A stretch of DNA of 64,000 bases from an uncultured Nitrososphaerota archaeon. Lineage in GTDB: Archaea > Thermoproteota > Nitrososphaeria > Nitrososphaerales > CADDZS01. The stretch's first letter is position 1, and every line of letters begins with the position of its first letter. The stretch is taken from contig CAWCYI010000006.1 of assembly GCA_963799845.1 (NCBI GenBank), positions 1,440,001 through 1,504,000 on the forward strand, given 5' to 3'. Under the pieces are notes generated by a model. The model saw only the letters and a list, made by a program, of their open reading frames with translations. It was not told the DNA's origin and made no database searches. Shown here piece after piece: positions 2 through 64,000 of the stretch. Position numbers and translations under genes: made by a program.

Positions 2-1129
2 TGGCTTGTATTCCTTCCTACCAGGCGCCTCGTTGAAAAATACGCAAAGAGCTACGGCGGCGTTTACCTCCACGGCGGACTCGAGGGTGCCGAGGTCAAC
101 AAGATCCAGCAGAGGGCGGAGATAGACAAGAACCTGAAGATTTTTGCGACAAACGTCGTCGCCTCTTCAGTCAACATTTACGTGGACAATGTCTTGATCT
201 TCAACGAGACAATTGAAGGCAGAGACAAGTTAGGGCACAAAGTACTCGAATACAAATCGATTGACAATAATTCCCTTCTGCAGATGATCGGGAGGATTGG
301 GAGGTTCAAGCCGGGCAGGGCCGTGATCTTAAGCGACGTTCCTATCCCCAAGACCATTTCTCCCAAGAAGGTGTACAAGTCTCTCGAAAGGGAAACACCG
401 TTTGACCTTGTTCTACTGATGTCCAAGTACGGGTTGAAGCTAACAGATCTCGAGTTCATGTCCAAACTTAATCTAGATGAAATTGCCTTCGCGGAAAATT
501 GGCTCTTCGAAATCGGTGCGATCCAAAAGGAGATGCACACGATAACCGAAAAAGGTGTCCTGATGAGCGAAATCCCCTACGATCCCGATTTCGCCCACAT
601 GATCTCGGAAGCAATCGTCCGCGGAAACAATGGGGTAGCGAGATTTCTGCTGGCGGCGGGCTCGTTCGGGGATTCTCTCAATCATGCGTTCAGAACCGAG
701 ATGGAGGCGCAGGCGAGCGAGTTTCTCTACGCGTTCGACAAGACGAGCGAGCTTGGAGTCAAGGCAAAACTGCTCCAGAAATACTCCGAGGATCGCGAAG
801 GATTATTTCTCTCGAAGCTCGTAGACAATGGCATATATCCTCGGTTTCTTGAGGAGGCGTGGAAGAACTATGATGCAGCTCGCGATTCGCTCAACGACAT
901 CATCAAGAGAGAGGGAAAGGAGATACCAAAAGAAGTAGTCTCTGAGATTGACTCTTCAAAGCTAGAGGAGTATCTCAAAGACTGTCTGACCTTCGAGCAC
1001 TACTATCTCCACGAGGCAAAGGAGTTCGGCCTCGACGACCTGAGGATTGAGGGCGACTTTTACGCGAGGAGTATAACAATGAACTTCAGGAAGATCCTGT
1101 ATGACGTAGTCGCGATTGAACCGAACTAA
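2..1129 (+). CDS. DEAH/RHA-family (HrpA-like) SF2 helicase, 5'-truncated by the window edge
   Basis: The frame is open from base 2. It reads LVFLPTRR (motif IV), LHGG, IFATNVVASSVNI (motif V), QMIGRIGR (motif VI) and an HA2-like segment TEKGVLMSEIPYDPDFAHMI. Confidence 0.8.
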   Translation, partial: WLVFLPTRRLVEKYAKSYGGVYLHGGLEGAEVNKIQQRAEIDKNLKIFATNVVASSVNIYVDNVLIFNETIEGRDKLGHKVLEYKSIDNNSLLQMIGRIGRFKPGRAVILSDVPIPKTISPKKVYKSLERETPFDLVLLMSKYGLKLTDLEFMSKLNLDEIAFAENWLFEIGAIQKEMHTITEKGVLMSEIPYDPDFAHMISEAIVRGNNGVARFLLAAGSFGDSLNHAFRTEMEAQASEFLYAFDKTSELGVKAKLLQKYSEDREGLFLSKLVDNGIYPRFLEEAWKNYDAARDSLNDIIKREGKEIPKEVVSEIDSSKLEEYLKDCLTFEHYYLHEAKEFGLDDLRIEGDFYARSITMNFRKILYDVVAIEPN

Positions 1130-44537: not shown

Positions 44538-44550
44538 ATAATTTCCGTCA

Positions 44551-45186: not shown

Positions 45187-45193
45187 GACTTCT

Positions 45194-47452: not shown

Positions 47453-47517
47453 AAATTTGCCCGTTTCTTGGAGAATAGTTTTCGTGTGACCAGTTGCAGC
47501 AATATTTTTTCGTGAAT

Positions 47518-48330
47518 CTAACTACGAGATCCCAAAACAAGGCCAGCGAATTCAATTGATTTCAAAAATATCAAGCCGAATCCATACTTTGGAGATCCGC
47601 TGATCATCATGATCATCGAATCGGACCGAATCAATCGCGATGGTGAAAGTTGGCGTCTTGCACGAATTTGATTTTTTGCTGTATATTGATGTATAGTACG
47701 GCCGTAATGGTACTTCTTCAAGAACATCTTGCGTAGTGAGACTAGTCCTTCATTGTGCCAGATAATGCTACTGGTACGACCCACTGTGAAATGTCGATCC
47801 GAAAGCTTCCTATGGATATCCCAATCTTCTCCCGCTTCTAAACCTTCGTCGTATCCCTTTATTTCGAAAAAACGATCCTTGTTGAAAAAGCAGGGTGATT
47901 CGATTAATTCATTACCCAGATAGATTCTCTTCTCAAGCGCAATACACTTAGACCAAAAACCTCTTCCGAAAGATAGTTCCGGAACTATAATAGCTGAAAA
48001 TGTCCCGCTTTCGCAAATTGAAACCGATTCTTCAATGACATTTTGTTCGAGCTCCATATCTGAATCAATAAACATCACATACTTGCCCCGCGACTTTTCA
48101 GCCGCGATATTTCTTGCTTTACTTCGTTTCTCTCCGCTTTCCAAAACAGTATCAGCATACTTATTTGCAAATGAAATTGTTGTATCAATGCTAAATCTAT
48201 CTATTACGATAATTTCTGTATTCGTATACGACTGGGATCTTATCGATTGAAGACAATCCGAGATAGTCTCGCCTGAATTGAAGGTTGGGACTACTACTGA
48301 TACAACTATGTCGTTGTATTCCAAGCCCAT
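47518..48330 (-). CDS. GT2 glycosyltransferase
   Basis: VSVVVPTFNS, IIVID..S.D.T, FIDSD, GYDE....ED. Confidence 0.92.
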   Translation of the reverse strand: MGLEYNDIVVSVVVPTFNSGETISDCLQSIRSQSYTNTEIIVIDRFSIDTTISFANKYADTVLESGEKRSKARNIAAEKSRGKYVMFIDSDMELEQNVIEESVSICESGTFSAIIVPELSFGRGFWSKCIALEKRIYLGNELIESPCFFNKDRFFEIKGYDEGLEAGEDWDIHRKLSDRHFTVGRTSSIIWHNEGLVSLRKMFLKKYHYGRTIHQYTAKNQIRARRQLSPSRLIRSDSMIMMISGSPKYGFGLIFLKSIEFAGLVLGSRS

Positions 48331-48388
48331 TATCTTCCGAAGCAGTTTAGATTAATCTTTTGTCAAGCAGGATTATTGGTATGCGATC

Positions 48389-49132
48389 TCATCTTTTAGA
48401 GTAGATCATTTCCTTACGTATACGATTGTGGAAGCCTTGGGCTTTCAAGGATTTAATCAAAGGTTTTGGATTACCGTGGAATTCAATTGCGCAGGCTTTG
48501 ATGTTAGGAGCGAGTCTTCCCGTGAGAACCGGGTACTCACATCCTTCGCAATCCATCTTCAGAAAGACTTCTTTGTCCTTATTTAATAGGCAAATATGAT
48601 TAATTTCTTCGGCTGAAGAAACTGACTTGTTATACAGCGTAATGACTCCATCAAGCGAGTTCTGTTTTACATTTTCAACTGCAATTCCAAATCGCTCATT
48701 GTCAGGCTCATACGCAAATACATAAGCGCCTTCGAGTGCAAAATGTATTGCGCTATCACCAATAGACGCTCCTATATCTATCGCAATTTTTCCCCTAAGG
48801 AGAAGAATGTCATAGATTTTGTCCAAGAAAATCTCGTCTATAACATGCGAATAACCTGTTGTCAGCATTTTCAGCTTGATGCCCCCTTGCAGGTTTACAA
48901 TGGGAGACCCTTCTCTTAGATCATAAGAAATTCCTTTAGACATACAGTGCAGGCTATAGAGCTTTTCGTAAAATTCAAGGTGTATTGAATTGCTTACGAA
49001 AGAGGTTTCACCATTTCGAAATATCACTACTGTTGAGTGTTTTATTCCAGAATAGACCACCAAGACTGAAACCCAATTCCTAACGTATTTCCTTAGCATT
49101 AAGACCCCTCTAACACTCTTAAGATGGGGCAA
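48389..49132 (-). CDS. FkbM-family methyltransferase
   Basis: IDIGASIGDSA, AYEP, LKMDCEGCEY, IEFH. Confidence 0.88.
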   Translation of the reverse strand: MPHLKSVRGVLMLRKYVRNWVSVLVVYSGIKHSTVVIFRNGETSFVSNSIHLEFYEKLYSLHCMSKGISYDLREGSPIVNLQGGIKLKMLTTGYSHVIDEIFLDKIYDILLLRGKIAIDIGASIGDSAIHFALEGAYVFAYEPDNERFGIAVENVKQNSLDGVITLYNKSVSSAEEINHICLLNKDKEVFLKMDCEGCEYPVLTGRLAPNIKACAIEFHGNPKPLIKSLKAQGFHNRIRKEMIYSKR

Positions 49133-49372
49133 CAGCTCGAAGATTGAATTTTTTCATTTAAGACTTTGGCAATTATGAGTGTAGGTTATTCGTTTTTTGA
49201 CTTGTTGGTTTGATAAACTGCCACAGATATAGGAATATTTAACAGGAGTATAGGGAAACGAATTACTTTCTGTCTTGAGGTAAAAGACCATTGTCAGCAA
49301 GATTGATTTAAAGAATCCAACTGCTGTTCACAGACTTGAGTGGAATAGCGAGCTGTATCAAAATTTTCGAGT

Positions 49373-50221
49373 CTACCATCGTAAGATTGGCTGGTAATTT
49401 TTCCTTCTTAATTCCAAATTACGCTGGTACCAATGTCTAATTCTCAACCGATATGCTATTCCTAACACGTCAATAAACATTCGAACTATGTTCTTATTTC
49501 TAAAATTGGATTCTAACTTGACGTTCGCAGGTAGTTCAACGATACGTAGTTTTAGTAATTTCGCAACTGTCAAGAGCTCCACGTCGAACGCATAATGCTT
49601 GACCGAAATCAATGGAACAATCTTCTGAAGAGCACTCTGCCTAAATATTTTGAACCCGGCTTGAGTATCGGAAAGTGGCAGCGACAACATCACTCGCACA
49701 AAAGTATTAAACCCGATGCTCAGGAATTTTCGCTTTACACCCGCGTTCACACGAGCTCCCGGAACTCGTTTTGATGCAATCGCCACATCGCAGCTTCTTG
49801 TCGCCGCTAAGTACTGGTTTAGATCAACTGGCACCGCTTGTAAGTCTCCATCGGCCAAAATTATCGATTCGCCAGTTGCGAATCTAAAACCATAGAGTAG
49901 AGCCTCTCCCTTTCCTCTGTTATCTTTGTACCCAACAGCTCGGACTCTTCGATCTTGAATCATGCATGCTTTTTCTAGAGTACTATCAGTAGAACCGTCG
50001 TCAACTATGACAAGCTCAAAACTGGGCAACAGCTCACCAAACTTTGTAATCGCTTTATCGACAAGATCAGTTATTGAGGCAGCTAGATTGTAAACGGGCA
50101 TCACAATCGAGACTGCAGGTTTCTGAATTTGACCTTCTGTGACCTCATGTTCCGTCGACGGCCGCTGGATTTCGATTACATCAGTTCTCTGCAAATTAGA
50201 CGGCCTAGGCTCGATCACCAA
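49373..50221 (-). CDS. GT2 dolichol-phosphate glycosyltransferase-like protein
   Basis: SIVMPVYN, VDDGSTD, NRGKG, DGD, DTQAGFK, AFDVELL. Confidence 0.9.
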   Translation of the reverse strand: MVIEPRPSNLQRTDVIEIQRPSTEHEVTEGQIQKPAVSIVMPVYNLAASITDLVDKAITKFGELLPSFELVIVDDGSTDSTLEKACMIQDRRVRAVGYKDNRGKGEALLYGFRFATGESIILADGDLQAVPVDLNQYLAATRSCDVAIASKRVPGARVNAGVKRKFLSIGFNTFVRVMLSLPLSDTQAGFKIFRQSALQKIVPLISVKHYAFDVELLTVAKLLKLRIVELPANVKLESNFRNKNIVRMFIDVLGIAYRLRIRHWYQRNLELRRKNYQPILRW

Positions 50222-50438: not shown

Positions 50439-50906
50439 ATGAATGAGATCTTTTCGCAAATTGAGATTAGTGCTACGCCCAACCAGGTATGGCAGATCCT
50501 CATGGATTTCGAATCATACCCAAGATGGAATCCATACATTCGATATGCAAGAGGGACGCCGGTCGTTGGAAAAAGAATCGAAGTACACACCCAACCCGAA
50601 GGCTCGCGAAAGCTAGTCTTTCACCCCCTTATTCTAAGGCTTGAGGAAAACGCCGAGCTGAGCTGGCGGGGGTCTCCGCTCCCAAGATTCCTCTTTTCGG
50701 GAGAGCATATTTTCTTACTCCAACCGAAAAGTCCTGGGATTACTAGCTTTATCCAGCACGAGATTTTTACCGGTCTACTTGTCCCGTTCCTGAGGAGGAC
50801 TTTGGACAAGCGGACATTAGAAGGATTTCGCAAAATGAATGAGGCCCTGAAAAGAAGAGCAGAGGAAGTAAATGGAGGCCCAACACCTCTTGCAAATAAT
50901 AATTAG
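50439..50906 (+). CDS. SRPBCC/polyketide-cyclase-like protein
   Basis: IEISA.P..VW..L.DF..YP.WNP, GEH.F, F...E.F.G, GF..MNEALK.RAE. Confidence 0.88.
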   Translation: MNEIFSQIEISATPNQVWQILMDFESYPRWNPYIRYARGTPVVGKRIEVHTQPEGSRKLVFHPLILRLEENAELSWRGSPLPRFLFSGEHIFLLQPKSPGITSFIQHEIFTGLLVPFLRRTLDKRTLEGFRKMNEALKRRAEEVNGGPTPLANNN

Positions 50907-51319
50907 GCAGCCAACTCAGTCAATCGATTAATATGCAAACTCCAACAAAGAAATAGAGCTAAAACGAGGATTCATCAGCTTCGCTTACAGCTTTTCAAGT
51001 AGGAGTTCCCATTGATTCATAAAGAAAAAAATTCTGCCGTTTCGCAGCTGCGCGATATCGTTTTGACGGGAGAGCTTGTTTCAAGCTCTGTTCAATTAAA
51101 ACAGCTTGTTTCACCTGTCTGGAGCTTAAATAGAGCTCGAACGTGGCTGAATGAAAGCGCCTATTTGAAAACTGGCATCGACTAGAGATGGTTGGATCAG
51201 GCAATCAAACAAGTCGCTATTGTTTGGTTGACAGAAAGAATTCCCTCCTTTAGTTGATTGGAGAAAACGTTTGCTGATTGAATTACCATGATGATCGAGT
51301 TGCTGCTTGAATTGATCGA

Positions 51320-51650
51320 AGATGAACGATGTCGGGGCGTGGTTTCCTTGCGCTCAAGACTACGAGCATGATACCGAGTCTTCGGAATGAGCGATCACGA
51401 CAGTCGGGGCCTTCTCTATTCCAGCAGCTTTAAGCGCGACCATGGGCTGAGTCTCGTACTCAAGTTCGGCAAAGATCTGCTTTTTCACTAGTTCGTGGTA
51501 GAGGTTATGATCCCTTGTGAGTATGACGTAATCAAATCCAAGATCCTCCAGTTTTTCTGCGCCGTATCGTCCAAGGTGGCTGTATCCGAATACAATCACT
51601 TGGTCTTTTAGTTTGGTTAAGAGTCTCTTTTCAGCTTCGCCCTTCCAGAT
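51320..51650 (-). pseudogene. Fragment of a K+-channel TrkA-N/RCK domain
   Basis: LKDQVIVFGYSHLGR...LKAAGIEKA..V; no start codon or pore region; frameshifted before VLSARK.RPDI. Confidence 0.65.
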
Positions 51651-51729
51651 CGGGCTCTAAGTTAACTAACACGGCCGGGAGGGTTTAATAGACCTACATT
51701 ATCACCTCCGTGTAAGGTAGTCGCGATCA

Positions 51730-51834
51730 ATGGTCAACTGTGCAAAATGTGGAAAAGAAATTCCCGCCGGGCAAGAGGTAAAGAAAGGTTTCATAAGCAA
51801 GAAAAGCTATCACAAGGAATGCGCCCCTAATTAA
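51730..51834 (+). CDS. 34-aa LIM-like zinc-finger microprotein, copy 1
   Basis: MVNCAKCGKEIPAGQEVKKGFISKKSYHKECAPN*; AAGGT Shine-Dalgarno-like site and TTTAATA upstream; paralog 240 bp downstream. Confidence 0.75.
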   Translation: MVNCAKCGKEIPAGQEVKKGFISKKSYHKECAPN

Positions 51835-51969
51835 GAAGCAGGCTATACATCCGAACAAATAACCTGCATGTCACATTGTGGGCTCACTACGATCTGTGCT
51901 AGAGTCAAGATAGGGAGAGAGATTTGATACATCCGCATCAATGTCCGTGTGGGGCGAGGTAAAGTTGCA

Positions 51970-52074
51970 ATGGCCAACTGTGCAAAATGTGGAGGAAGAA
52001 TTCCTGACGGACAAGAGGTAAAGAAAGGATTTCTAATGAAGAAAAGCTACCATAAAGAATGCTCACCCAAGTGA
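51970..52074 (+). CDS. 34-aa LIM-like zinc-finger microprotein, copy 2
   Basis: MANCAKCGGRIPDGQEVKKGFLMKKSYHKECSPK*; GAGGT upstream; several synonymous differences from copy 1. Confidence 0.75.
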   Translation: MANCAKCGGRIPDGQEVKKGFLMKKSYHKECSPK

Positions 52075-52936
52075 CAAATTATCCGAAAAATAGCCTTGAG
52101 ATGGCCAGCGAAGAGTGCGCTTTGGAATTGAAATACTTCTTCTGCTTCCACGGATGCACAAACGAGTTTTCCATACATTTAGTTTAGACACAAAGACTTA
52201 TGCTCGTGCTTGCTGAAACCACGAGAAGGTCAGTGCATGCAAGCGCGTTTTCAGAAGAAATCGAAAGCGACCCACTTTGCTAGAAATTTCTTTCCCCATT
52301 TTTTCATTCACTCCCATAGTAATCCCGGACACGCGATTATTAGATTAACCTCAGTGCCAAGGCAATTCGTAGGTAAGCTTCTTGAATTGAGTACCGCATC
52401 TCTTGATATGGCGGCGTATTTTCTTGGGGCTGATGAGTTTGCCGCATTTCGGGCAGGTTGGCATTAAAATTTCTATTCTTGGTCTCTGGGTACTTGGATA
52501 AAAATTACATGGTTACTAGTTCCTTTTGTTATGGAAATAAAGCAAAGTAGCACTTCGCTGATTTTTTCGTCTAGTTAAACTACTTAATTCGGTATGGTTA
52601 GAAGTATGCGATGTAAAGTATGTCCTACTGAAATATCCGATTCGATTTGACCAAACAGGTAATCTTGATGTATGGGCTTGTTTTAGAGTAACTGGAAGTC
52701 GAGTGTTGTGCTATTGGAAGTATATTCAAGTTACTAGAAAGATTCTACCTGAATACGATTGAGGATGAGCTTTGTTTTTTATCTTCGATAGTCCGACCAG
52801 CAAGTACCAAGTTGGACTACCTTATGCCACCTAACGTTAGTTCGGTGGGACAGGAGAGTTCATTAGACCAAGCTAGGGATGACCTCAAGATCATATCTCT
52901 TGATCGTCCTAATTTCTCCACTTCGATTTTTGGAAA

Positions 52937-53168
52937 TTAACTAGAGATCATGAGAGTCTGAGTAGATCTGATTTTTTCTATCCTTCTTATTTTCCATGTG
53001 ATTGTTTCTTTGAGCAGCTGCTGTGTTTCAGCTTCCACCTTTACCACGAAATCATACGCTCCATAAACCAGATAGACTTCTCTAACGTTTTCGATGCCTT
53101 TTCAGCTCCCGGATGACTTCATCCTCCAAGCCTGCTTCAACGTTAATTAGAATGAATGCGATTGGCAT
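52937..53168 (-). CDS. Stand-alone Lrp/AsnC ligand-binding (RAM) domain protein (one extra base near 53100)
   Basis: MPIAFILINVEAG.E.EV..ELK|GIENVREVYLVYGAYDFVVKVEA...IRRIEKIRSTQTLM; 76 aa after removing one A following GAGCTG. Not in the ORF track. Confidence 0.85.
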
Positions 53169-53253
53169 CTACTTTTTGTGCTCGCTCCTTTCAACGTGTT
53201 CAACATGGCCGAATGCTATTACGTTCGCGACCCGGGACCGAGCGGTCACCAAG

Positions 53254-53497
53254 CTAATTCGGGCGATCGCGGAGCCCAGAGTAAACCAGAAACTCTGCTT
53301 TCTCTTCAGCTTCACGCAACGAAAGTTTCGAGTCTGCAAAAGAGATATTACACTCTTGACAGAACCACCACCCTTCGTAATTTTTCCGAAGTTCGAGTCC
53401 GCAGCTGAGAACAAACGGGGACTTGCAATTTGTTCCGAGTCCGTGCTTCAGTTGCTTCTAGTGGAGTATGAATTTCAGCTTCAACTTGTTTCTGCAT
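53254..53497 (-). CDS. Small zinc-ribbon protein (one extra base near 53407)
   Basis: Removing one base next to AGCT 53403 gives MQKQ...VCSSCGLELRKNYEGWWFCQECN...DRPN*, 80 aa. Confidence 0.6.
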
Positions 53498-53644
53498 CCT
53501 CTAACATCGGATTACTTTGTCCGGCGAATATTATTCTCTTTCCGAGAAGATTTCATAATCACTAGAAGATTGACGCAAAGACCGACTACAAATAATGTCA
53601 ATATGATCATCAAGATTTCAAAGGCTGGGTTGATTTTTGGATAG

Positions 53645-53865
53645 ACTTTTCTGAGCTCGGTGTTCTTTCCGAGCTACAGCAAGTAACCTCGTCCTGCGGC
53701 TGATCTTTCAGATCAACCCGCTCACGTACGTTGCCAATCTCGTGAGAAATTTGCTGGTGGGCATATCAGGTTTTAGCATGCCGCTGGAGCTCGGTGCGTC
53801 TTCGAGAGCATTGTTCTGGTCTACGTCGCGTCTCTTGCAATCAACAGGATCGAGCTGTGGTCTAC
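53645..53865 (+). pseudogene. C-terminal remnant of an ABC-2 permease
   Basis: Reads FLSSVFFP...LIFQINPLTYVANLVR with frameshifts and no start codon. Confidence 0.5.
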
Positions 53866-53962
53866 GAGGCTTCTCACATCTCTCTTAGATGATCGCTACT
53901 CGAAGATTGAGAGTAAGACGGAAGAATTAGTTTTTATCTAAACAATAACCTTTCAACAACTA

Positions 53963-56572
53963 ATGAACCCGGCAGCCGGCTGTAAAAGACATTTACCATC
54001 TCTTTACATGCTAATGGCGTTAGGTCTGCTATTAGGTTTCTTCGTTCTTTCGCTAACGGGCATCCACTCAGCTGCCCTAACCACCTCGTCGATCTCTTGT
54101 ATAACTGCAGAGGATGCACCTTCAGTGACCTTGAGCCTTTTGGTGAGCGGAAACGTAACAACGGTTTCGCCGACGAGCCTTGTTTGTAATGGAGTTTCTG
54201 TTTCTTTGACTCTTACAACAATGGAAAACGGAAAAGGAAATGTTTCAGTGGAAGTGCCTCCCCCCACCAATGTTTACATCAGAGACATTTTCCCTGGAGT
54301 TCTTCAGACGGAGCAAATCGCGACGTGCATATCCTCCGGATGCACCTTTTCGACAACTCGACTCTCCGTTTTCACCCAGGTCGAAGAGTTCTTCTCTTAC
54401 AAAATCTCAGGAGGGGGATCGGGGTACACTCCACCCACCCTCTTATACTACTACCAAGGCGCCCCCGATTCCACACCTCTAGGCACTGGTGTTTGGGTTG
54501 ATTGCTGCAGCTCCGACTGGACGGTGCCACGTACCCTAACGGGGTCGACTCTTTTGGAGCAATGGTCGGCGAACCCTGATGATACTGAAGGGATCGCATC
54601 CCCCGGTTCGGCAGGTTCTACTGTAGAAATCACCTACTATAATCAATATTCTCTGACCTCGAGCTTCACTGTGACCAGCGGGGCAGGATACCAGAATCCA
54701 CAATTGAGATATACGCAGTATGGTGGTTTGCAGCAGGTTCCGACAACGAGCTATCCTACTTCGTACTGGGCCGACGCGGGAACTCTGTGGAGCATATCCA
54801 GCACCCTGCCCGGTCCGACCCCTTCCGAGCAGTGGGCCGCCGCCCCAAATTCGGTTCTGTCGGGCACGGTTTCAGCGCCCGTGGCAATATCTCCCCACTA
54901 TTTCCACCAATACACGGTGATCGCTAACTACACCATTATCGGTACAGGAAGTTCTGGATACGGCAATCCTACATTTTTCTACACCTCGCTAGGATCCACC
55001 AATTCTACAACCTTGACGATGTCACCGGTAGAGTATTGGGTAGACGCCGCGTCCCAGTGGAACATTTCAAAAGCCCTTGCCGGGAACTCTACATTGCAAA
55101 GGTGGCAGACCAATCAACTGACGAGCGGGTCTGTAACCTCCGCTGAAAATATCACGATTGCGTACTACTGGCAGTACTTTGTCACATTCCAGTACTCGGT
55201 CGTTGGCGGCGGTGACAATTACATCACTCCGTCGCTGAACTATTCCCAGTTTGGGATAACGCTAGCAGGATCGCAGGGGCTGCAAGTATGGGCTGATGTC
55301 GGATCAAATTGCTCGTACACAAATCCTCTGATGGGGTCCACTTCGACCGAAAGGTGGTATGCAAGCCTGCCGACGTTGAGGGTATCGTCGAACACCGTCA
55401 ACGCGATGTATTACCACCAGTTCTCGTACTCGGCAAGTTACACGATCGTGGATGGCGGACAGGGGTACTCCAGCCCGATTTTTAGTTACACTTCTTTCGG
55501 AGCTTCCAATGAGACATTTCTGTCTACTTCAGCGACCACTTACTGGCTTGATTATAACACTCGCTGGGGTACGACTTCGCAGCTCAGCGGCTCCAACGCG
55601 ACGGAGCGATGGGCGACTAAGCAATTAGTTCAAGGTGTGGCAACAGCCCCGGCGAGCACTGAGTTTGGTTATTTCAACCAGTATGCTCTAACATTGAATT
55701 ACGAGGTCACACTCGGAGGCTCTCCACCAGCTCCGGCATTGAACTTAACTTCATTTGCGACGTCCAATTCTACTCACCTCAGCACGTCCCCGACCGTATA
55801 CTGGGTCGACGCAAGTACATCATGGTCGGTCACGAAAACACTCCAGCTCCAACCTAATGCTTCCTCGGAAAGATGGATAACGAATATGACGGTCTCTGAG
55901 GCGTCAGCTTCTGGCGCGTTTAACCAGACCATTGTGTATGATCATCGGTACTACCTCCTGGTTCAGCTGAACGACGCCCCAGGGGGAAGTTCCAACGCGG
56001 CCACTGGCTGGTACAACAATGGGAACAAGATTAACATCGCAGCGAGTGCCAATGCGGGTTGGGAATTTGTATCGTGGGACGGAGCAGGAAATTCATCCTA
56101 CACCGGTCCACAGAAGAACGAAACTGTTTCGCTGACTAGTCCAGCAAATGAAACTGCGATCTTCTACGCCGGTCTAGTGATTTATTCCGGTCCTAACGGA
56201 TCTGTAGAGTACAGTTACGGCAATCTGTCCGGAACTCAATCCGGGATCATCCAGCCGGGGACAAATGGAACAATCTTCGTTCTTCCCAATACTGGTGTTA
56301 ATCTCACAGAATCCCCATCAAGTGTACTCTATGTTTTCTACGGTTGGACCGGATACACAAAAGCTAACAGCGTAAGCGCTCTGATAGATGTCAATATTCC
56401 GAAATCGATTAAAGCTTCGTTTGTTCTGGATTATGCAGACATCACCGTTTTTGCGATTGTGACTGCGGGCGTGATCGTGCTGTCTTTCGGTGCATTTCCG
56501 GTACGGTTCAAGATTCGAGGCTTTTTTCTGAAAAAACGAGAAAGTTCCTCTTTAATTTCCGGTAAGGTTTAA
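53963..56572 (+). CDS. Membrane-anchored surface protein with six ~88-aa repeats and InlB-B-like domains
   Basis: Signal peptide, Cys-containing head, six Y..Q...GG..Y..P...W.D....ERW repeats, GWY...GWEFVSWDG, C-terminal TM and basic tail. Confidence 0.8.
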   Translation: MNPAAGCKRHLPSLYMLMALGLLLGFFVLSLTGIHSAALTTSSISCITAEDAPSVTLSLLVSGNVTTVSPTSLVCNGVSVSLTLTTMENGKGNVSVEVPPPTNVYIRDIFPGVLQTEQIATCISSGCTFSTTRLSVFTQVEEFFSYKISGGGSGYTPPTLLYYYQGAPDSTPLGTGVWVDCCSSDWTVPRTLTGSTLLEQWSANPDDTEGIASPGSAGSTVEITYYNQYSLTSSFTVTSGAGYQNPQLRYTQYGGLQQVPTTSYPTSYWADAGTLWSISSTLPGPTPSEQWAAAPNSVLSGTVSAPVAISPHYFHQYTVIANYTIIGTGSSGYGNPTFFYTSLGSTNSTTLTMSPVEYWVDAASQWNISKALAGNSTLQRWQTNQLTSGSVTSAENITIAYYWQYFVTFQYSVVGGGDNYITPSLNYSQFGITLAGSQGLQVWADVGSNCSYTNPLMGSTSTERWYASLPTLRVSSNTVNAMYYHQFSYSASYTIVDGGQGYSSPIFSYTSFGASNETFLSTSATTYWLDYNTRWGTTSQLSGSNATERWATKQLVQGVATAPASTEFGYFNQYALTLNYEVTLGGSPPAPALNLTSFATSNSTHLSTSPTVYWVDASTSWSVTKTLQLQPNASSERWITNMTVSEASASGAFNQTIVYDHRYYLLVQLNDAPGGSSNAATGWYNNGNKINIAASANAGWEFVSWDGAGNSSYTGPQKNETVSLTSPANETAIFYAGLVIYSGPNGSVEYSYGNLSGTQSGIIQPGTNGTIFVLPNTGVNLTESPSSVLYVFYGWTGYTKANSVSALIDVNIPKSIKASFVLDYADITVFAIVTAGVIVLSFGAFPVRFKIRGFFLKKRESSSLISGKV

Positions 56573-56609: not shown

Positions 56610-57554
56610 TTGAAACGCTCTATATTGTTCTCTACAGCGTCGCTACTATTGATGATTCTTCTGGTCTTCAATAGTAATTCGGCGAGTGCCGCGACGTCGT
56701 GGGCCTCGGTGACTTCAATTCATGATCTAACAGGGGGTACGGCTGTCCAATCTGGACAGCCATTGATTGCAGGCCATTCGTACAACATTACATTCTTGAT
56801 AGCGGTTCCCTTCAATCAGACAAGTTCCCAGTTCCAGGTATCGCTCAACCCGCAATTGCAGCAGCAGGGGGCTCAATACTGGTATGTACTGACGCCCGGC
56901 TATTCCGGGTATGATTCTTCTAGCTTTACTGCTGGAGACAAGACCGTGAGTTTCACCCAGATTCAGGGTCAGCTAACACTTTCCGCGGAATTTCAGATAC
57001 CGGTTAACCTAACACTCAAAAGTGCCAGTGGACTGGTCCTTCACTTTCCGCAGAATGATTTTCAACTTATAACGGTGAGCGTGAGTGGCGGCTCGGTGGC
57101 GGGCAACGTCTCGCTTAACGTGCAAGACCAGACGATCGAAACCTATCTCAACACATACCAGTCAGATTCTAGGCTTATATCTTCTGGCACGATAGACAAG
57201 TCCTACTCGTCATTTGTCGATAACATTCTGAACCAATCTCAGTCGCTCTACAGTTCTGGTCTGGTATCACAGGCAACTAGCCTCCTCGGTGTGCTCACTT
57301 CCTCCACGTTCCCGGCCCCGTCTAACAGTTCTACCGAGACCTATCTCGGAGCTGGATTGGTGGTGGTTGTGATAATCGCCGTTGTTTTCGCTGTCATGGC
57401 GCTCCGGAAGAGAGGCCAATCCAGCGTCTCTTCGTCCGTGGTAGCCGACGTCCAGAAGGAGCTGGCAATGCTCGAGGTTACCGCATCAAGGTATGACAAG
57501 AACTTGGCTGAGAGGTTGAAAGCTTTGAGAGAGAGGTTGAATGATGTAGTATGA
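56610..57554 (+). CDS. Single-pass membrane protein with extracellular domain and short cytoplasmic coiled-coil tail
   Basis: Signal peptide ...SASA, TM GLVVVVIIAVVFAVMAL, tail VQKELAMLE...LAERLKALRERL; 4-bp overlap with the tubulin-like gene. Confidence 0.8.
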   Translation: MKRSILFSTASLLLMILLVFNSNSASAATSWASVTSIHDLTGGTAVQSGQPLIAGHSYNITFLIAVPFNQTSSQFQVSLNPQLQQQGAQYWYVLTPGYSGYDSSSFTAGDKTVSFTQIQGQLTLSAEFQIPVNLTLKSASGLVLHFPQNDFQLITVSVSGGSVAGNVSLNVQDQTIETYLNTYQSDSRLISSGTIDKSYSSFVDNILNQSQSLYSSGLVSQATSLLGVLTSSTFPAPSNSSTETYLGAGLVVVVIIAVVFAVMALRKRGQSSVSSSVVADVQKELAMLEVTASRYDKNLAERLKALRERLNDVV

Positions 57555-60229
57555 GTACGCGCACTTTTGCAAGCATCCACGTTATCGGACTCGGGGGAGC
57601 CGGCACAAACGTAATCCAGTCCCTCATAGAGAGCAAGAGGTTCACTCAACTTCTTTCTTCTGAGGATTTTTCGATCGCTTGCCTAGCTCTGGATATCGCG
57701 GAGGCGGATCTCGCCAATCTCCAAAAATCGTACAGGAGCGTTCAATCGGTTCTGGAAACGAAGGGGATTTCTCTTGAGAGACTCTGGGTCAGAGGTCTCA
57801 ACATAAAGTTCAGCACTCCTGACGCGCTGTTTGAGTTCATGGGCAAGTTCAACGGATATTTGATGAAGGATGGCATTCACGTAAACAACTACAAGCCCTG
57901 GATTGCAACGTCCATGTCCATTCCGCCACTCGCGGGTGGCGTAGGAAGGATGCGCTCCCTGAGCAAGGCAGTCTATAACCTGAATTACTATCATTACATG
58001 GAACTCAACAACGTGATGTCCGTTTTCAAGGACAAAGTTCTCACCTCCAAGAGGCAGCCAATTGTGGTACTCGTCTACGGTCTGGGTGGGGGAACCGGAA
58101 GCGGGATGTTGTTTGACTTTGCAAGGCATCTCAGATCCAAACTGGGCTCGTCAATTCCGATAATCGGTCTGTGTGTTTTGCCCAGCATTGCAGACGACCT
58201 TCTTGCAAGAGGACCGGCGTCGTTCACCAGCTTAATGGAAACAGACCTTCTATTCAACTTGGACCTGAACGAAATGGTTGCGAAGGAGTTTGGCGAAGCC
58301 TACCGCAACCCTTTCACCTCGCTCTTTTTTGTCCCACTGGAACCGGTGTACAACAACAGGAGCAATCTGGTGAACGCAAAGAAGGAACTGGACGATGCGA
58401 TCGTGGACACCCTGCACATACTCTCCACTTTCGATCTTGCGGATCTGCTTAGTCGGCTGGGGACGAACAACAATTTCGGTCCCAACTGGGTGCACACGAT
58501 GGCTTATTTGAAAATCAGGTATCCAGTGGACGATTACGTAGACTATTTTCACGAGTACCTCCATCTCACCGAGTTGATTGGAGGATTCATGAATCTCAAG
58601 AGGGAAGCTCTACTCCGGATAAACGAGACTCTGAACAACAGGTTCATCGAGTCCAAAGAACTTTATCGCAGACACCTCATTTCTATGAATCGCTATGCAG
58701 TGGAGACTTTTGACAAGGACGTCGAAGATGTAATCCACAGAGCCGGCAAGTTCGACTCGGAATTCAAAAGGCAGGCTAAGGGCCTCGAAGATTTCGTCCT
58801 CCGCTACAGTGATTCGTGGTCCAAGGTGCTGCAAGCCATGGTGTTCTCTGAGGATAGTGTGGAGTATTCCGTTGTATATCAGATAAAAAAGTGGAAAGAT
58901 CAGATTGCCCACATCGGCACGACATTTGAAGAATTGCAAAAAGACTTGCCTACTTCACTGTCTGAGCTGGAAGACACTCTGACGGCTAGCAAGCTTTTGA
59001 CTTCAAGCCAGATCCGACAGGTCCGCTCGTACGTCAGCTTTGTCTATCTGATCAACACGGCGCTTCAGACACTGACACTGTACATTAGAGCAAAAGCGCT
59101 CGCGGACGAAGTGGGGGTTCTCAACGGGAGGGACAACAAAGGTACCGCTGGAGGCAGCAGAAACGCCCGCGGCGCCAATAACAATGCTCCCGCAGAAGAG
59201 GCGCAGTTGCTTCCGCTGTTTAGGGCGGCCGGCTATATTCTGACGAGACCGGAGACCGAGGTGAAGGTCTCTGACCAGTATATTCCGGGTATCAGAGTAG
59301 TCAGGAAGAATGTAGATTCCACTTACAAAGAAGCCCTGGCAAACGCAGAATCCACTGAGAGATTGCTCGCTCAAAAGCAGACTGAGGTCACGAGACTCCA
59401 GAGGGAAGTAACGAAGGTGCGGATCGACGTGTCTGGAAAGAAGAAACTTTTGCAGAAGAGCCTGAACTCACTACACCACGATGCTGCAGCGCTCAGCGCG
59501 CAACTTTCCGAGCATAGAGCGGAGTGCGACAGGCTTCGGATTGAATCGGAGAAGCTGGCAGAACTTGAGAATGAATTGGAGATGGCCTCTCAGTACCACA
59601 AGACGCTCAGTCAAATCGTGATCAAGACGAATGAGCTGAACTCGAAGATGAGCGTGATCACGAATACCGGCAGCTACTACGAGAGGGTCGTGGAGCTGAG
59701 CGAAGCAGAGCAAGTGAAGATTATGGCGAAGATCCTTCGGGAGCAGGAAGAAGTGCTGAAGGGAGAAGGGATACTGAAGGAAATAGTGGACAAGGATCGA
59801 TTCAGGTCGATTGTGACGAGCTACATGAGGATCTTCAGCATTGCAAACTATTCCGGTCTCTCTGATAGTTTCCGAACGGACCTGATCTGGGCGACTGTCG
59901 GAATTCCTTCTGGCCTCTGGGATCAAGAGTTACAAGGATCCTTCGCAAATAGCCTCAACGTGTTTACCAGTATTGAATCGAGCAAGAGCATTTCCATTCG
60001 CCAGCTGAATGACATTGATCCCTGGACGATAACCTTCCTGATTATTCTCGCAAAAGCGAGGACGGATCAGCTAGAAAAGTTTCCGTCGATGAAAAATGAC
60101 ACGGAAGCTGTGAGCAAATCTGAAAGGGTTTTATTCAGAAGCTTCTTGCTGGAGCATGGAATTCAAAACATTGACGAGCTTACAATGAAGCTTGAGCAAC
60201 AAGAGTCCCCACACAAAGTGGAAGAATAG
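57551..60229 (+). CDS. Tubulin/FtsZ-superfamily GTPase (FtsZl1/Tubulin_2-like) with a large helical/coiled-coil insertion
   Basis: IGLGGAGTNV, LALD, GGVGRMR, signature YGLGGGTGSG (aa ~176-185), GLCVLP, T7-like FDLADL (aa ~294-299); heptad-rich region at aa ~590-700. Confidence 0.88.
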   Translation: MSTRTFASIHVIGLGGAGTNVIQSLIESKRFTQLLSSEDFSIACLALDIAEADLANLQKSYRSVQSVLETKGISLERLWVRGLNIKFSTPDALFEFMGKFNGYLMKDGIHVNNYKPWIATSMSIPPLAGGVGRMRSLSKAVYNLNYYHYMELNNVMSVFKDKVLTSKRQPIVVLVYGLGGGTGSGMLFDFARHLRSKLGSSIPIIGLCVLPSIADDLLARGPASFTSLMETDLLFNLDLNEMVAKEFGEAYRNPFTSLFFVPLEPVYNNRSNLVNAKKELDDAIVDTLHILSTFDLADLLSRLGTNNNFGPNWVHTMAYLKIRYPVDDYVDYFHEYLHLTELIGGFMNLKREALLRINETLNNRFIESKELYRRHLISMNRYAVETFDKDVEDVIHRAGKFDSEFKRQAKGLEDFVLRYSDSWSKVLQAMVFSEDSVEYSVVYQIKKWKDQIAHIGTTFEELQKDLPTSLSELEDTLTASKLLTSSQIRQVRSYVSFVYLINTALQTLTLYIRAKALADEVGVLNGRDNKGTAGGSRNARGANNNAPAEEAQLLPLFRAAGYILTRPETEVKVSDQYIPGIRVVRKNVDSTYKEALANAESTERLLAQKQTEVTRLQREVTKVRIDVSGKKKLLQKSLNSLHHDAAALSAQLSEHRAECDRLRIESEKLAELENELEMASQYHKTLSQIVIKTNELNSKMSVITNTGSYYERVVELSEAEQVKIMAKILREQEEVLKGEGILKEIVDKDRFRSIVTSYMRIFSIANYSGLSDSFRTDLIWATVGIPSGLWDQELQGSFANSLNVFTSIESSKSISIRQLNDIDPWTITFLIILAKARTDQLEKFPSMKNDTEAVSKSERVLFRSFLLEHGIQNIDELTMKLEQQESPHKVEE

Positions 60230-60332
60230 GGACTCTTGAAAGGACAGCAATATCAGCCTCAACGGGTCTTTGCTGGCGCGACGACTGTTACCACTGACAG
60301 CTGCATCGGTCGACAATAAAGAGGGGCCAGCG

Positions 60333-62635
60333 ATGTCCTCTTTGATGACGAAGGAATCTCCGAACACTTCTCCGGTCAGGGAGAAAATCAAGACCTACAC
60401 TTCTGCCCTAATTATCTGGATTGCCACGTTCGTGCTCCTTTCAGTAGTTCAGTTTCTTCCAGGAGATTCTATTTTAGCCGCCCTTCTGGGAGTTGGACTA
60501 TCCTTAGTTTATCTGAAAGCGGGGGGCCTCGCGCTCATAATCCTTTACATTCTCACATACTTTGCGATTATCTGGCAGCTCCTAGGGTTTGGATTCTTCC
60601 AGCTGCTGACTACTTTGGTTGGTGTAGTCGTTATGTTGGCCTTGATTCTCACATTGCTGAGCTTTTTCCTTCTTCGGATCGAGGCAATCTCGATCTCGCT
60701 GGTCATTCTTTCGGTCTCCCTGATGCTCACACCGCTGTACTTTCTCTCGATACCGTTGATACTTGTGGGGATGCTTTACGAAGGCTTTGGCAGCGCGAGA
60801 GTGCAATCAATCAATTTTGTATTACTGCTGACTCCGTTTGTGCTACTGGACAATGGAATTTACTACAACTCCTCTCCAAACGTCGCTTCGAATCCGCCGA
60901 TTATTTTTTCGCAGCTAAGTAACCTCGCCAACAACCTCAGGCCGCCTTTGTCCGGAATCAACCTGCTCCAGGGAACCGCGCCCTCGAATTTCCTCTACGC
61001 GCACGCGCTATCCGTGTCAAACTTCATGCTCACGAGGAGCTACATCGTCTACATCCCTCTAATCCTCTTCGCGGCCGTGCTCATAGTAACCGTTTCAGTG
61101 GCGAGTTTTTTGACAAACTCCCTTTTGAAGAAAATTTCGGTCATTGAAGTGACTCAAAACTATTCCAGGATTTTTGAGCCGATAGTAACCTCAGTGATCG
61201 TTGCTCTAGCCTTTATAGCGATGATGCTCGGTTTGTCTCCGCTCGGCGCTAACGTTCTCCAGACCGGCATTTCAATTGACGCCGGTTCGTACTTTATGAT
61301 AGCGGGGTCGATCGGAGTAGCTGGCTTGCTGACGGGGACCGAGCTGACTTACCCAGAATTTAGAGCGCACCCAGCTTTCCAAGACTAAGCTTGAAGAGTT
61401 GCTCGCAGATCTTGACCGCAGGATCATGACAATCAACGGCGAAATGAAGGAAATATCCACAAACGCTCCCTCGATCGACCTGAGCTCAGAAAGGAAGACG
61501 CTTGCCGAATATGTCTCGTACGCAGATGATGTAAGGAAGCGGCTCCCAACCGCGAGTTATGATTCCTTTCAAAGCTGGACATCTGACATCGAGAACAGAA
61601 TATTTCCCTCTCTTGATTTAATGCCCAATCTGCTTAGGACGCGTCTCACGGCCGGATTGCAGGTGCTTTCATCTGTCTCCCTGACGACGAACAGTCACTT
61701 AGACGAGAGCAGAGTCTGTCGGACCAAGATACCCGTCAATGGATCAGTTTGCCGTGTCCAGTCAGTCACAATTAGATGAAGAGCTTCAAATTTACCAACG
61801 AGTCGTGGATTCGATTGAGAAAACGACGACAACACTTTTTGATCACTATGTTAAGTCGATCAGAGCGTACAGCGAGCTTATGCTCGTTGAAGAAGTCACG
61901 CCTCCAGTCAGTCCGGCTTCATTGCTCGCCTCACGAGATTACGTTACCGCAATGAAGCTGGTTTCAGATGATTACTGGCTGAACTTTCACGTCAGAGAAA
62001 GTGAAAAGTACAGTGAAAAACTAAAGATGTTTCTCGATGCTGTGTCCAAGCTTTCGAGCGTTTCCAACGGAGAAGATGCCGAGCGATTGACTCGATTAAT
62101 CGCGATGAGCGCGAACATCTCTCCCTCGAGCGCGCCTTTGATGCTCGAGAATATCAGCAAAGTTATTGAATTTCTAAGAGATGCGATGGCGCGAGCCATA
62201 GATGAGATCGAGACTGTGAAAAAACTGGTGGCTACGGTGGACCCATCTTTCTCGAATGTGTTGAAGCTTAACACGACCGGGATCCTGGACGAGATGCTCG
62301 CAATCCAGAGCACGATGCGCGGAGCAAAGCCGGACTTTAGCGACGCAATCTCTCTTTCGAAGGAAGCCTTACCAATCCTCCTGGTTCTTTCGGAATACAG
62401 GAAGATGGACTCGGAGAGTCTTGTAGTAATATCCCAGTATCCGGTGGCGGTCAGGCTTTTGCATCGACTCTTTGACGAAAACAAAGAGGTGGTTCGTACG
62501 AGCGAGCTTCCCTTCCAGCGGGATGTAGCAAAATTCTTCGTCAGATCCCTTGCCGCGTCCAGCCGATCTTACTCGTACAACGAAGAGCGTGAGGAGCTCT
62601 CCTATGAGCAGGATAAAATGTATCAACGGTCATGA
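60333..62635 (+). CDS. Polytopic membrane protein with a long C-terminal helical domain (two extra bases, near 61347 and 61715)
   Basis: ORFs 60270..61388, 61399..61779 and 61739..62635 step +1 frame each and join into ~766 aa (TELLTQNLER...; SRAVGPRYPSMDQ). About 8-9 TMs, then charged helices. Confidence 0.7.
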
Positions 62636-63698
62636 AGAGTCCGAGTCCACTGCACTACGCTTGATGTGCAGCAACTGTGGAGGCGCCATGTTGTACAAAG
62701 ACGCCTGCGTCCAGCAGCTCCAGAATTTGCCCAAGGTGGAGCCCCCTTTCGAAAAGGTTTCAGTGATCTTTGCTGGATTGCCAAAGTCATCACCATTGGA
62801 GGGAGAGGACAGGGGCGTTTACGCCGCGTCCATAGTTGCCGGGGACGACGAAATCGAAAAAGTAGAAACTTTCACGATGAGGAGGTCCGAAGGAACGAGC
62901 TGGTTTGATTTTTACTCAAAGTACCTCGACAAGCTCGGCAGATGGATGAAGTTTGTCGGCCTCGGCCGATCTCACTACAGACTTTTGGTGGTGGACACAA
63001 GGAGACCCATATCCGTGCTCGTTCTTGCTGCAATCTCGCAATTTGGGAAAAATACAATCGTTCTTATGGTAACAGCCGATCAGACATCCACGCTGATCGA
63101 ACAGAACACGAGCTATGTCGCCATATCTACCGCCCTAAAATATAGCTTTCCATTAATCGCAGTCTCCACCTCATACGTAGATGACCTGATTTTCTACACG
63201 GAAAACGATGGACTCGTTGTCCGTTCTCAAGCTCTTATGCCCGTAATACACCTCTTGGTTTCTTCAATCGACAGCGTCACGGATATGATGGGAAACGATG
63301 TGCGTCTGGGAATAAGGGAGCACTGTCTTTCTGCCATCCTGTCAGCGTCTGAAAAAGTCTATCCCTCGGTAGACGATGTGCTCTACACGCAAGAGTCAAG
63401 CTTTTCGATTAATGCAAAAAAGGCCGATGTTTCGACGGCGTACTTGTTAGCTTTCGCTCCGGTAGATGTCCTGAATAGAATCGACAAAGCATTCTCAAAG
63501 TACAGGAGACAGGAATTGAAGGACGTTATAGGTGCCGATCATCAGGGGTACCCGAGAGATATGGGTGCATCCTCTGCTTTCTACGACCTCATGATGATCT
63601 ACGGGATCAAGGAAGGATCCACGTTCGCGCCACTGAAGAAAGGGTACGAGTCGGTGGCGAGCAAGGTTTCCGATCTAAGTGTCGAGAAGGTGATGTGA
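62604..63698 (+). CDS. Zn-ribbon protein with a probable degenerate tubulin/CetZ-like domain
   Basis: CINGH...CSNC at the N-terminus; IVLMVTA...STLIEQNTSY.AI..AL....LIAV, AYLLAFAP, GAD..GYP and DLMMIYGI follow the order of tubulin/CetZ elements; no GGGTG motif. Confidence 0.6.
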   Translation: MSRIKCINGHEESESTALRLMCSNCGGAMLYKDACVQQLQNLPKVEPPFEKVSVIFAGLPKSSPLEGEDRGVYAASIVAGDDEIEKVETFTMRRSEGTSWFDFYSKYLDKLGRWMKFVGLGRSHYRLLVVDTRRPISVLVLAAISQFGKNTIVLMVTADQTSTLIEQNTSYVAISTALKYSFPLIAVSTSYVDDLIFYTENDGLVVRSQALMPVIHLLVSSIDSVTDMMGNDVRLGIREHCLSAILSASEKVYPSVDDVLYTQESSFSINAKKADVSTAYLLAFAPVDVLNRIDKAFSKYRRQELKDVIGADHQGYPRDMGASSAFYDLMMIYGIKEGSTFAPLKKGYESVASKVSDLSVEKVM

Positions 63699-63703
63699 TC
63701 ACA

Positions 63704-64000
63704 ATGAGCGAAGCTGTATTCGACCTTCAATCGGTGAAGTACCAGGGCAGGATACACAAGAAATGCACTCTCTACGTGAACGACGAGCGAAGCGAAGCCA
63801 AGATTCTGGCGACGAAAAACCGTATCTTTTTCATGAACCGTCAGCTGTACTTTTTGAATCGACCCGTTTCACTGCTGTCGTTTACATACGATGCGTCCAC
63901 TACGGTAGATGTCCAGGGACGGTTACTGACGGTCAACAAGGACATTTTGATGGAAGCAAGCGAGCAGGGTGAATCTACAAGGATCGCTGATCTGATGCTT
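63704..64000 (+). CDS. Hypothetical protein, 3'-truncated by the window edge
   Basis: ATG 5 bp after the previous stop; the frame MSEAVFDLQSVKYQGR... stays open to base 64000. Confidence 0.7.
   Translation, partial: MSEAVFDLQSVKYQGRIHKKCTLYVNDERSEAKILATKNRIFFMNRQLYFLNRPVSLLSFTYDASTTVDVQGRLLTVNKDILMEASEQGESTRIADLML

Follow-up and report, generated by a model that had tools for sequence, protein, structure and literature searches.

The 64,000-nucleotide stretch analysed here (the window), positions 1,440,001 to 1,504,000 of contig CAWCYI010000006.1 in the assembly GCA_963799845.1 of an uncultured Nitrososphaerota archaeon from soil, carries on its plus strand a gene of the tubulin/FtsZ superfamily (57551..60229), which starts with ATG and encodes a protein of 892 amino acids (aa; P0001). 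The gene lies between those of a single-span membrane protein, here called B, and of a polytopic membrane protein, CDE. An earlier note, made from the sequence alone, had described the product as a tubulin-like GTPase with a T7-type loop, whose C-terminal domain is interrupted by a long helical insertion. Structure predictions now point to a complete tubulin fold with the insertion placed directly after strand S7, and we consider both the fold and the insertion point very probably right. The protein does not represent a kind of its own, however: it belongs to a distinct subfamily within FtsZl1/Tubulin_2, a family that has been named but not characterised, and this membership the earlier note had missed. 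The subfamily has a conserved partner set of its own.

The assignment to this family rests on the Pfam profile Tubulin_2 (PF13809), which is matched with 44.6 bits against a cut-off of 27 (E 1.5e-11) by aa 11-214 of the protein over profile positions 2-209 of 356, and the general Tubulin profile (PF00091) is likewise passed by the N-terminal 214 residues (35.9 bits, cut-off 33). Since the Pfam cut-offs are exceeded and the full length of the protein is conserved in 484 proteins, the similarity is more than chance. The FtsZ equivalog profile TIGR00065 reaches only 21.6 bits at aa 7-28, far from its cut-off of 295.2. Within the nucleotide-binding domain (aa 7-272, S1 to H6; 57569..58366), which was delimited by the Pfam match, the secondary structure and the invariant glycines, the GTP-binding motifs are intact, as the earlier note had stated: T1 reads GLGGAGTN (aa 13-20; 57587-57610) and T4 reads GGGTGSG (aa 179-185; 58085-58105), in agreement with the superfamily signature GGGTG(S/T)G, and a T3-like AGGVGR is found at 57932-57949. 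In the alignment of 32 relatives (A1), which extends down to 22% identity, T1, T4, the T3-like motif and the two aspartates discussed below are invariant in all 32 sequences. The N-terminal domain is the best conserved part of the protein (0.58, compared with 0.35-0.38 for the helical arm), and a segment at aa 704-770 stands at 0.56.

Because sequence searches against the PDB reached only T1 and T4, the T7 region was addressed by a profile-profile comparison with FtsZ, the FtsZ profile being built from the three canonical genes that this genome carries. In the hhalign alignment of aa 166-301 with FtsZ positions 112-233 (probability 83%, E 9e-6), the residues F-D-L-A-D are placed on I-D-F-A-D of the FtsZ motif NIDFAD. 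The motif FDLADL (aa 294-299, with D295 and D298; 58430-58447) is also located in the model between the predicted helix H7 (273-292) and the elements H8 and S7 (296-303 and 313-323), so that the T7 position claimed for DLAD is supported by both approaches. The pair DxxD is kept in 32/32 relatives, and we take the loop as a T7 motif of the NxDxxD/E type; the position two before D295 is occupied by Asn in ten of the 32 and by Thr in three, the window protein among the latter. At the level of sequence, the family may thus be described as keeping DxxD strictly and the full NxDxxD in part.

The AlphaFold2 model, built from the 32-sequence alignment, has a mean predicted local distance difference test (pLDDT) of 87.7 and a predicted template modelling score (pTM) of 0.77, and pLDDT falls below 50 only at residues 1-3, 528-547 and 886-892. 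Its order of secondary structure elements follows the N-terminal domain of tubulin and FtsZ up to S6 (257-262) and H6, after which come a helix of 20 residues (273-292, H7), FDLAD, the helix H8 (296-303) and a long strand (313-323, S7); together, the core helix, the T7-type loop, H8 and S7 are assigned to 58367..58525. The residues at aa 313-325 read WVHTMAYLKIRYP. From residue 326 to about 768, the model is helical with the exception of the disordered loop 528-547 and a short strand at 711-713. Strands resume with S8 (779-784), S9 (814-819) and S10 (826-837), helix H10 occupies residues 792-805, and the chain is closed by C-terminal helices at 844-852, 856-862 and 874-883. Over residues 740-860, pLDDT amounts to 82-95. 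The predicted course agrees well with the helical stretch that the earlier note had drawn from about aa 325 to 770 and with the beta-rich sequence that it had seen to follow (DLIWATVGIP at aa 777-786, ISIRQL at aa 814-819 and WTITFLIILAK at aa 825-835). A two-domain fold with a Rossmann-like N-terminal domain, the core helix H7 and a C-terminal domain is therefore what the model depicts.

In a Foldseek search, CetZ, TubZ and FtsZ were the top matches of the model (best E 3.9e-7). With VIA-align, a method that aligns whole chains and tolerates long insertions, 290 of about 305 FtsZ residues were matched over model residues 6..836 at a root-mean-square deviation (rmsd) of 3.5-3.9, and 319/360 residues of CetZ were matched over 6..858; the aligned ranges end at model residues 836-858 for FtsZ, CetZ and TubZ and at 878 for tubulins. 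By our estimate from the FtsZ numbering, the part of FtsZ up to S7 comprises only about 220 residues, and since about 290 of 305 FtsZ residues are aligned, the C-terminal subdomain of FtsZ must find its counterpart in the model beyond the insertion. The second half of the tubulin C-terminal domain together with the C-terminal helices is assigned on the basis of these ranges, and of the residues W780 and W790, which are invariant in the alignment, to 59861..60205. The splitting of the C-terminal domain proposed in the earlier note is hence reproduced by the superpositions, and neither of the two outcomes that the note had set against itself, a position of DLAD away from T7 and a C-terminus that does not pack as a tubulin C-terminal domain, was obtained with the model.

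The insertion of about 445 aa between S7 and S8 (aa 326-770; 58526..59860), delimited by secondary structure, pLDDT and conservation, consists in the model of eight helices (326-378, 387-421, 437-479, 485-531, 546-563, 567-622, 630-676 and 681-703) and a compact stretch (704-770) in which the helices are short. It includes a Gly/Asn-rich loop at aa 528-547 (59132..59191), with pLDDT below 50 and a mean identity of 0.10, the length of which varies among the aligned relatives. The earlier note had taken the insertion for a heptad-rich coiled coil, and this was confirmed in part. Compared with 500 shuffles, heptad periodicity was significant in four of seven helices (reached by at most 14 shuffles), namely 387-421 (0), 567-622 (1), 681-703 (9) and 437-479 (14), whereas it was weak in 630-676 (37/500) and absent in 326-378 (172/500) and 485-531 (347/500); a canonical heptad coiled coil thus accounts for only part of the arm. 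A break at DVSGKK (aa 626-631) had also been noticed, and the model indeed interrupts the helical stretch here, between helices 567-622 and 630-676, so that we read the motif as the probable hairpin tip of this helix pair. At 0.15 nm per residue, its helices of 56 and 47 residues give an estimated length of at least 8 nm for the predicted arm. By topology, we take the insertion site to be the S7-to-H9 connection and hence the position of the tubulin M-loop. In tubulin, this S7-H9 connection is the M-loop, which makes lateral contacts.

A second model supports this architecture. The protein P0223 (901 aa) spans positions 1 to 347 of the 356 positions of the Tubulin_2 profile and is a mainstream member of the family; it matches the window protein at only E 1.2e-4 over aa 111-346 and is about 29% identical in its GTPase part. 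Modelled independently, it shows the same split fold and a T7-type DxxD, and an insertion after S7 combined with such a loop therefore appears, as far as the models go, in two distant branches of Tubulin_2. The branches differ in the length of the insertion (about 445 aa in the window subfamily and roughly 235 aa in P0223), and the window subfamily is without the long C-terminal helical extension of P0223.

Relatives over the whole length were numerous: a word-indexed search in which 8000 candidates were scored yielded 484 proteins at E<=0.001, most of them 860-910 aa long; where named, they carry the labels 'tubulin-like doman-containing protein' or 'hypothetical'. They originate from Nitrososphaerales, Bathyarchaeia, Sulfolobus tengchongensis (P0105, 41% identity) and Dehalococcoidia; the orthologue in the related locus L001 is 86% identical. 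An exhaustive HMMER search of 1.84 billion cluster representatives yielded 111 matches at E<=0.001 and 27 at E<=1e-30, and a relative was encoded in 289 of 381 candidate stretches (one genome per species). In an even sample of the phylum, the gene was present as one copy in 16/401 genomes and 9/162 genera, whereas none was found in the 56 genomes of the family that is sampled best within the same order. This patchy distribution in the phylum suggests an accessory rather than a core system. In one record titled Candidatus Sulfotelmatobacter sp. (L038), the archaeal-type order of B, the tubulin-like gene and CDE was seen in a metagenome-assembled genome labelled as an acidobacterium, which could be due to gene transfer or to a binning error.

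The genes surrounding the tubulin-like gene were compared by clustering the plus-strand open reading frames (ORFs) of 80 related loci and the window with BLAST. The tubulin-like gene itself is found in 81/81 loci. Gene B (56610..57554, plus strand; 314 aa) encodes a signal peptide, an ectodomain of about 210 aa, one transmembrane helix (about aa 245-267) and a conserved cytoplasmic helix of 47 aa (aa 268-314) with the invariant D296, which is conserved even in distant archaeal and Chloroflexota sequences. A homologue of about 320 aa lies directly upstream in 79/81 loci according to the clustering and in 57/80 according to tblastn with the window protein. The TGA of gene B overlaps the ATG of the tubulin-like gene (ATGA). 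The third gene, CDE (60270..62635, plus strand; about 765 aa in relatives), encodes a polytopic membrane domain and, in its final 420 aa or so, a helical domain on the cytoplasmic side; its homologues of about 780 aa occur in 70/81 loci, in archaeal as well as Chloroflexota records, and several of the loci that lack it stop at the tubulin-like gene or shortly beyond. The core of the three genes B, tubulin-like gene and CDE is strictly conserved, and the linkage of the tubulin-like gene to two membrane proteins is tight and probably translationally coupled. Neither gene B nor CDE nor their analogues were matched by any Pfam family, and a search of a protein atlas with CDE returned unnamed archaeal clusters only. 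A complex prediction with alignments for the full tubulin-like protein and the tail of B (aa 266-314) gave a score of 0.00, which speaks neither for nor against binding.

In the window, CDE is broken into three ORFs in three frames (60270-61388, 61399-61779 and 61739-62635), and tblastn with the intact homologue of the related locus L001 runs through frames 3, 1 and 2. The sequencing runs listed are four DNA runs of one soil-metagenome study, with none of RNA. Metagenome contigs from two runs of one soil-metagenome study (X1 and X2) have one letter fewer at 61346 (in one X1 contig) and at 61715 (in one X1 contig and one X2 contig) and are otherwise identical to the window over 60200-62700. These positions account for both frame changes, which makes indel errors of the assembly the most likely cause of the breaks; in those metagenome contigs, CDE is whole. 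The assembly of the window thus probably contains single-base insertion errors, and other genes of the genome may be affected similarly.

The genes after CDE vary by clade. In the clade of the window (16 loci), CDE is followed by gene F (62604..63698, plus strand; 364 aa from the second Met, 382 aa from a TTG at 62550), which combines an N-terminal Cys/His zinc ribbon with a domain of about 320 aa that is devoid of T1- and T4-like motifs (alignment A5). F is usually followed by a paralogue, F2, of which only the start is contained in the window (63695..64000, plus strand) before the gene runs off its end; F2 was assigned by its cluster (c4) and by tblastn to L001 16169-16975, and a second gene of this cluster comes after F in ten of the 15 F loci whose sequence extends that far. 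Downstream of CDE, the Dehalococcoidia loci instead encode proteins of 324 aa and 452 aa. The 452-aa protein (c7) passes the Pfam Tubulin profile (43.4 bits, cut-off 33) and is aligned with FtsZ by hhalign at a probability of 93.8% (E 1.7e-7). F is aligned with c7 over 200 columns (probability 60.8%, E 8.2e-5), and its nearest atlas clusters are Tubulin-bearing, with a best score of 0.88 that stays below the 0.9 mark and is to be read as a lead only. Comparison of F with the c19 family gave an hhalign probability of 17%; its search against PDB sequences gave nothing usable (best E 0.98), and Pfam returned no family for the F of the window and stray weak matches in 15 members. On these sequence comparisons, F is probably a degenerate tubulin-fold partner without nucleotide motifs, and F and F2 may both be tubulin-fold proteins that have lost them. 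The 452-aa protein (L039:15249-16607), whose gene lies two positions downstream of CDE, likewise carries a Cys/His motif at its N-terminus and retains GGGTGSG.

FtsZl1 was defined by Makarova and Koonin in 2010 (PMC2875224). According to the sections of that paper on this family, the elements from T6 to H7 are not identifiable in FtsZl1, T7 and a C-terminal domain were not found and no similarity to tubulin-type C-domains was seen. Santana-Molina et al. (PMC9871819), in their treatment of these sequences, equate these FtsZ-like proteins with Pfam Tubulin_2 and exclude them from their trees as too divergent. Like FtsZl1, the window protein has an N-terminal FtsZ-like GTPase domain followed by long helices (326-703), and it is encoded in an operon with membrane proteins; unlike in the 2010 description, it is predicted to possess T7 and a complete C-terminal domain, split by a helical module. 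If our models hold, the absence of these elements from that description appears as a limit of methods confined to sequence and does not exclude the protein from the family. The partners also differ, with vWA proteins, P-loop GTPases, kinases and OmpA in FtsZl1 operons (vWA in the 'majority' of them, not in all, in the wording of the relevant passage of PMC2875224) and gene B, CDE and F here. Full-text searches of the literature, whose coverage does not extend to subscription-only papers, gave no experimental study and no structural description of FtsZl1 or Tubulin_2, and no report of a T7 loop or a split C-domain in the family.

Some parallels in gene order can be drawn from the entries of Additional file 5 of PMC2875224. 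For Sulfolobus solfataricus, they give SSO1376 and SSO1378 as FtsZl1 fragments (371 and 672 aa) with a transposase between them and a hypothetical gene of 831 aa behind, which resembles the tubulin-like gene and CDE in order alone; the Culexarchaeia paper (PMC9723716), where it deals with these proteins, places those of Sulfolobales under FtsZL1. The euryarchaeal order in the same file is A2 (about 280-294 aa), FtsZl1, a membrane GTPase and A1 (up to 821 aa). A2 and A1 resemble gene B and CDE in size and position alone, which might reflect a distant homology.

Several features set the window protein apart from other tubulin-like proteins. Its predicted fold is closest to CetZ; nevertheless, its identity to CetZ is 13-18%, the CetZ structures (PDB 3zid, 4b45 and 4b46) have about 330-395 residues and no insertion, compared with 892 aa and a 445-aa insertion here, and no Pfam CetZ_C match at E<=1 was obtained, so that the protein is not to be counted as a CetZ. 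FtsZ has no insertion of 445 aa, and its equivalog TIGR00065 is failed by the window protein. Identity to tubulins, including BtubA/B and the Asgard AtubA/B, is 8-14%; the window protein has no Pfam Tubulin_C match, and unlike for tubulins no heterodimer partner of equal size is encoded here. In contrast to TubZ and phage tubulins, the gene is a chromosomal one, with membrane-protein genes around it; a TubZ_C-type Pfam match was absent from the protein, and no search was aimed at a TubR-like partner. A TubZ-like role in plasmid partition and a role in defence or mobile elements were considered and set aside: no recognisable partition gene, and no recognisable defence or mobile-element gene, was present among the neighbours or the conserved clusters of the related loci, where no dedicated search (e.g. 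PADLOC for defence) was made.

We consider a membrane-linked, tubulin-fold GTPase with an arm, which would form filaments docked to its operon partners, to be the best explanation overall, and somewhat better than an even chance can be given to it. The tubulin-like protein would bind GTP and assemble head to tail in the manner of FtsZ and tubulin, with D295 and D298 of each subunit completing the active site of the adjoining one. The arm would project from the side of the protofilament and leave the longitudinal interfaces of the GTP pocket and T7 free. The lateral arms and the conserved segment 704-770 could dock the filament to the cytoplasmic parts of B and CDE, i.e. to the 47-aa cytoplasmic helix of B and the helical cytoplasmic domain of CDE, and F and F2 might cap, nucleate or co-assemble. 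Such a module would amount to a filament system tethered to the membrane, with a role in organising or remodelling the envelope. Of its parts, association with the membrane through B and/or CDE is moderately likely, the formation of GTP-dependent filaments is about as likely or slightly less so, and our confidence in any specific cellular role is low. Since the genome holds three canonical FtsZ genes, the structure is probably not a division ring.

Several observations weigh against this explanation. All structural statements are derived from AlphaFold2 models, and the superpositions are known from their first and last aligned residues only. Searches of PDB sequences with the protein and with its profile link only T1 and T4 to FtsZ, CetZ and tubulin, the remaining matches being generic coiled coils, and the Pfam Tubulin_2 match ends at aa 214. 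Both the arm and the C-terminus lack an obvious membrane-binding element, and a Pfam scan of eight neighbouring ORFs (E<=0.1) revealed no partner of the vWA, P-loop GTPase, kinase or OmpA type. The link of F to tubulins, given by the atlas lead and the c7 alignment, is indirect and modest, and the direct hhalign comparisons of F reach probabilities of only 0.06% with FtsZ and 0.2% with the tubulin-like protein. Finally, the window protein has Thr instead of Asn at the first position of NxDxxD. This substitution would also fit a GTPase acting as a closed dimer or small oligomer, in which the arm dimerises and the T7-type aspartates act across a single dimer interface, comparable to G proteins that are activated by dimerisation, and long helices with a partial heptad periodicity could make inter-subunit coiled coils in such an assembly. 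All elements of the longitudinal contacts of FtsZ and tubulin are nevertheless predicted and left free by the topology of the insertion, both aspartates are invariant, as expected for catalysis in trans, and no protein of this fold is known to us to function as a closed dimer; we therefore regard this alternative as rather unlikely.

The invariance of the binding glycines, the T3-like motif and the T7 aspartates in 32 sequences down to 22% identity, together with the better conservation of the N-terminal domain than of the arm, indicates selection on catalysis. It thereby argues against a static scaffold, in which the nucleotide would be structural or not bound at all and the protein would serve as a helical adaptor between membrane proteins, with the tubulin fold as a relic. 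That the predicted arm makes up half of the protein would suit such an adaptor, as would the apparent loss of the nucleotide motifs in F, by which motif-less tubulin-like proteins may be tolerated in the system, but the probability of a scaffold of this kind seems small to us. Smaller still is the chance that the split C-terminal domain is an artefact of the prediction, and that the last 120 residues are an unrelated alpha/beta domain packed on S7; the protein would then consist of an FtsZ-like N-terminal domain, a coiled coil and a separate C-terminal domain, as in the 2010 description. It is true that no sequence method ties residues 771-892 to FtsZ_C, Tubulin_C or CetZ_C. An artefact is, however, hard to reconcile with the pLDDT over residues 740-860 and the pTM given above, with the number of FtsZ residues superposed at that rmsd, which would be out of reach without a C-terminal domain, and with the agreement of the independently modelled P0223; moreover, S7 would be left as an orphan strand.

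If the models are right, FtsZl1/Tubulin_2 proteins would be full tubulin-fold enzymes with an intact trans-acting catalytic loop, and a large module inserted at the lateral face would be the hallmark of the family. The new point would be a whole tubulin fold with a lateral insertion in a family that has been described without T7 or C-domain. The conserved core offers defined candidate membrane partners, and D295, D298 and the arm provide concrete experimental handles; genetic tests may be possible because a cultivated Sulfolobus species encodes the orthologue with 41% identity. A more far-reaching proposal would be a widespread class of 'armed' tubulin polymers, in which the arm at the position of the M-loop exchanges contacts between protofilaments for contacts with membrane proteins, and which would form with F, B and CDE a transmembrane link through which cytoplasmic, GTP-driven filaments position or move structures outside the cell in archaea and Chloroflexota. 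The 2010 view of FtsZl1 would then need to be replaced for the whole family, but we consider this proposal improbable.

Directly upstream of gene B lies gene A (53963..56572, plus strand; 869 aa), which matches Pfam Flg_new_2 (E 2e-6) and encodes a protein with a hydrophobic segment near each terminus and, between the two, a long repeated region rich in Ser, Thr and Asn. Its homologues were detected by tblastn in only three of the 80 loci; those of L001 and L002 lie directly upstream, that of L012 elsewhere and on the opposite strand. Gene A is outside the conserved core.

The three canonical FtsZ genes of the genome (G000; L081-L083) encode proteins of 353, 357 and 352 aa with 80-87% mutual identity and are distributed over two contigs (C6:603337-603819, minus strand; C4:780209-780691, plus strand; C6:493754-494236, plus strand). 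With a completeness of 86.68% and an estimated contamination of 4.87%, they could be true paralogues or a redundancy of assembly or binning. Two degenerate FtsZ-like genes (355 and 309 aa; L084 at C6:284415-284873 and L085 at C4:1700620-1701003, both on the minus strand) pass Pfam Tubulin; they have an altered T4 (GLGGTVGS and GLGGSVGS), and no T7 of the NxDFAD type was seen in them by eye. Profiles of Snf7 and CdvA found nothing in this incompletely recovered genome, where the Snf7 control was only weakly positive, and we do not claim their absence.

Upstream of gene A, a region of about 3 kb (50906-53963) contains no ORF of at least 150 aa except 53113-53565, and scans of 50800-54100 with Rfam and for tRNA genes gave no match. 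A remnant at 53645-53857 resembles the C-terminus of a 276-aa ORF located upstream in L001, and the region could consist of decayed genes or harbour further frameshift errors. On the minus strand at 43491-50221, the translations suggest by eye an apparent gene cluster for cell-envelope glycosylation, with two glycosyltransferase-like proteins, a polytopic membrane protein of 752 aa, methyltransferase-like proteins and a FemAB-like protein.

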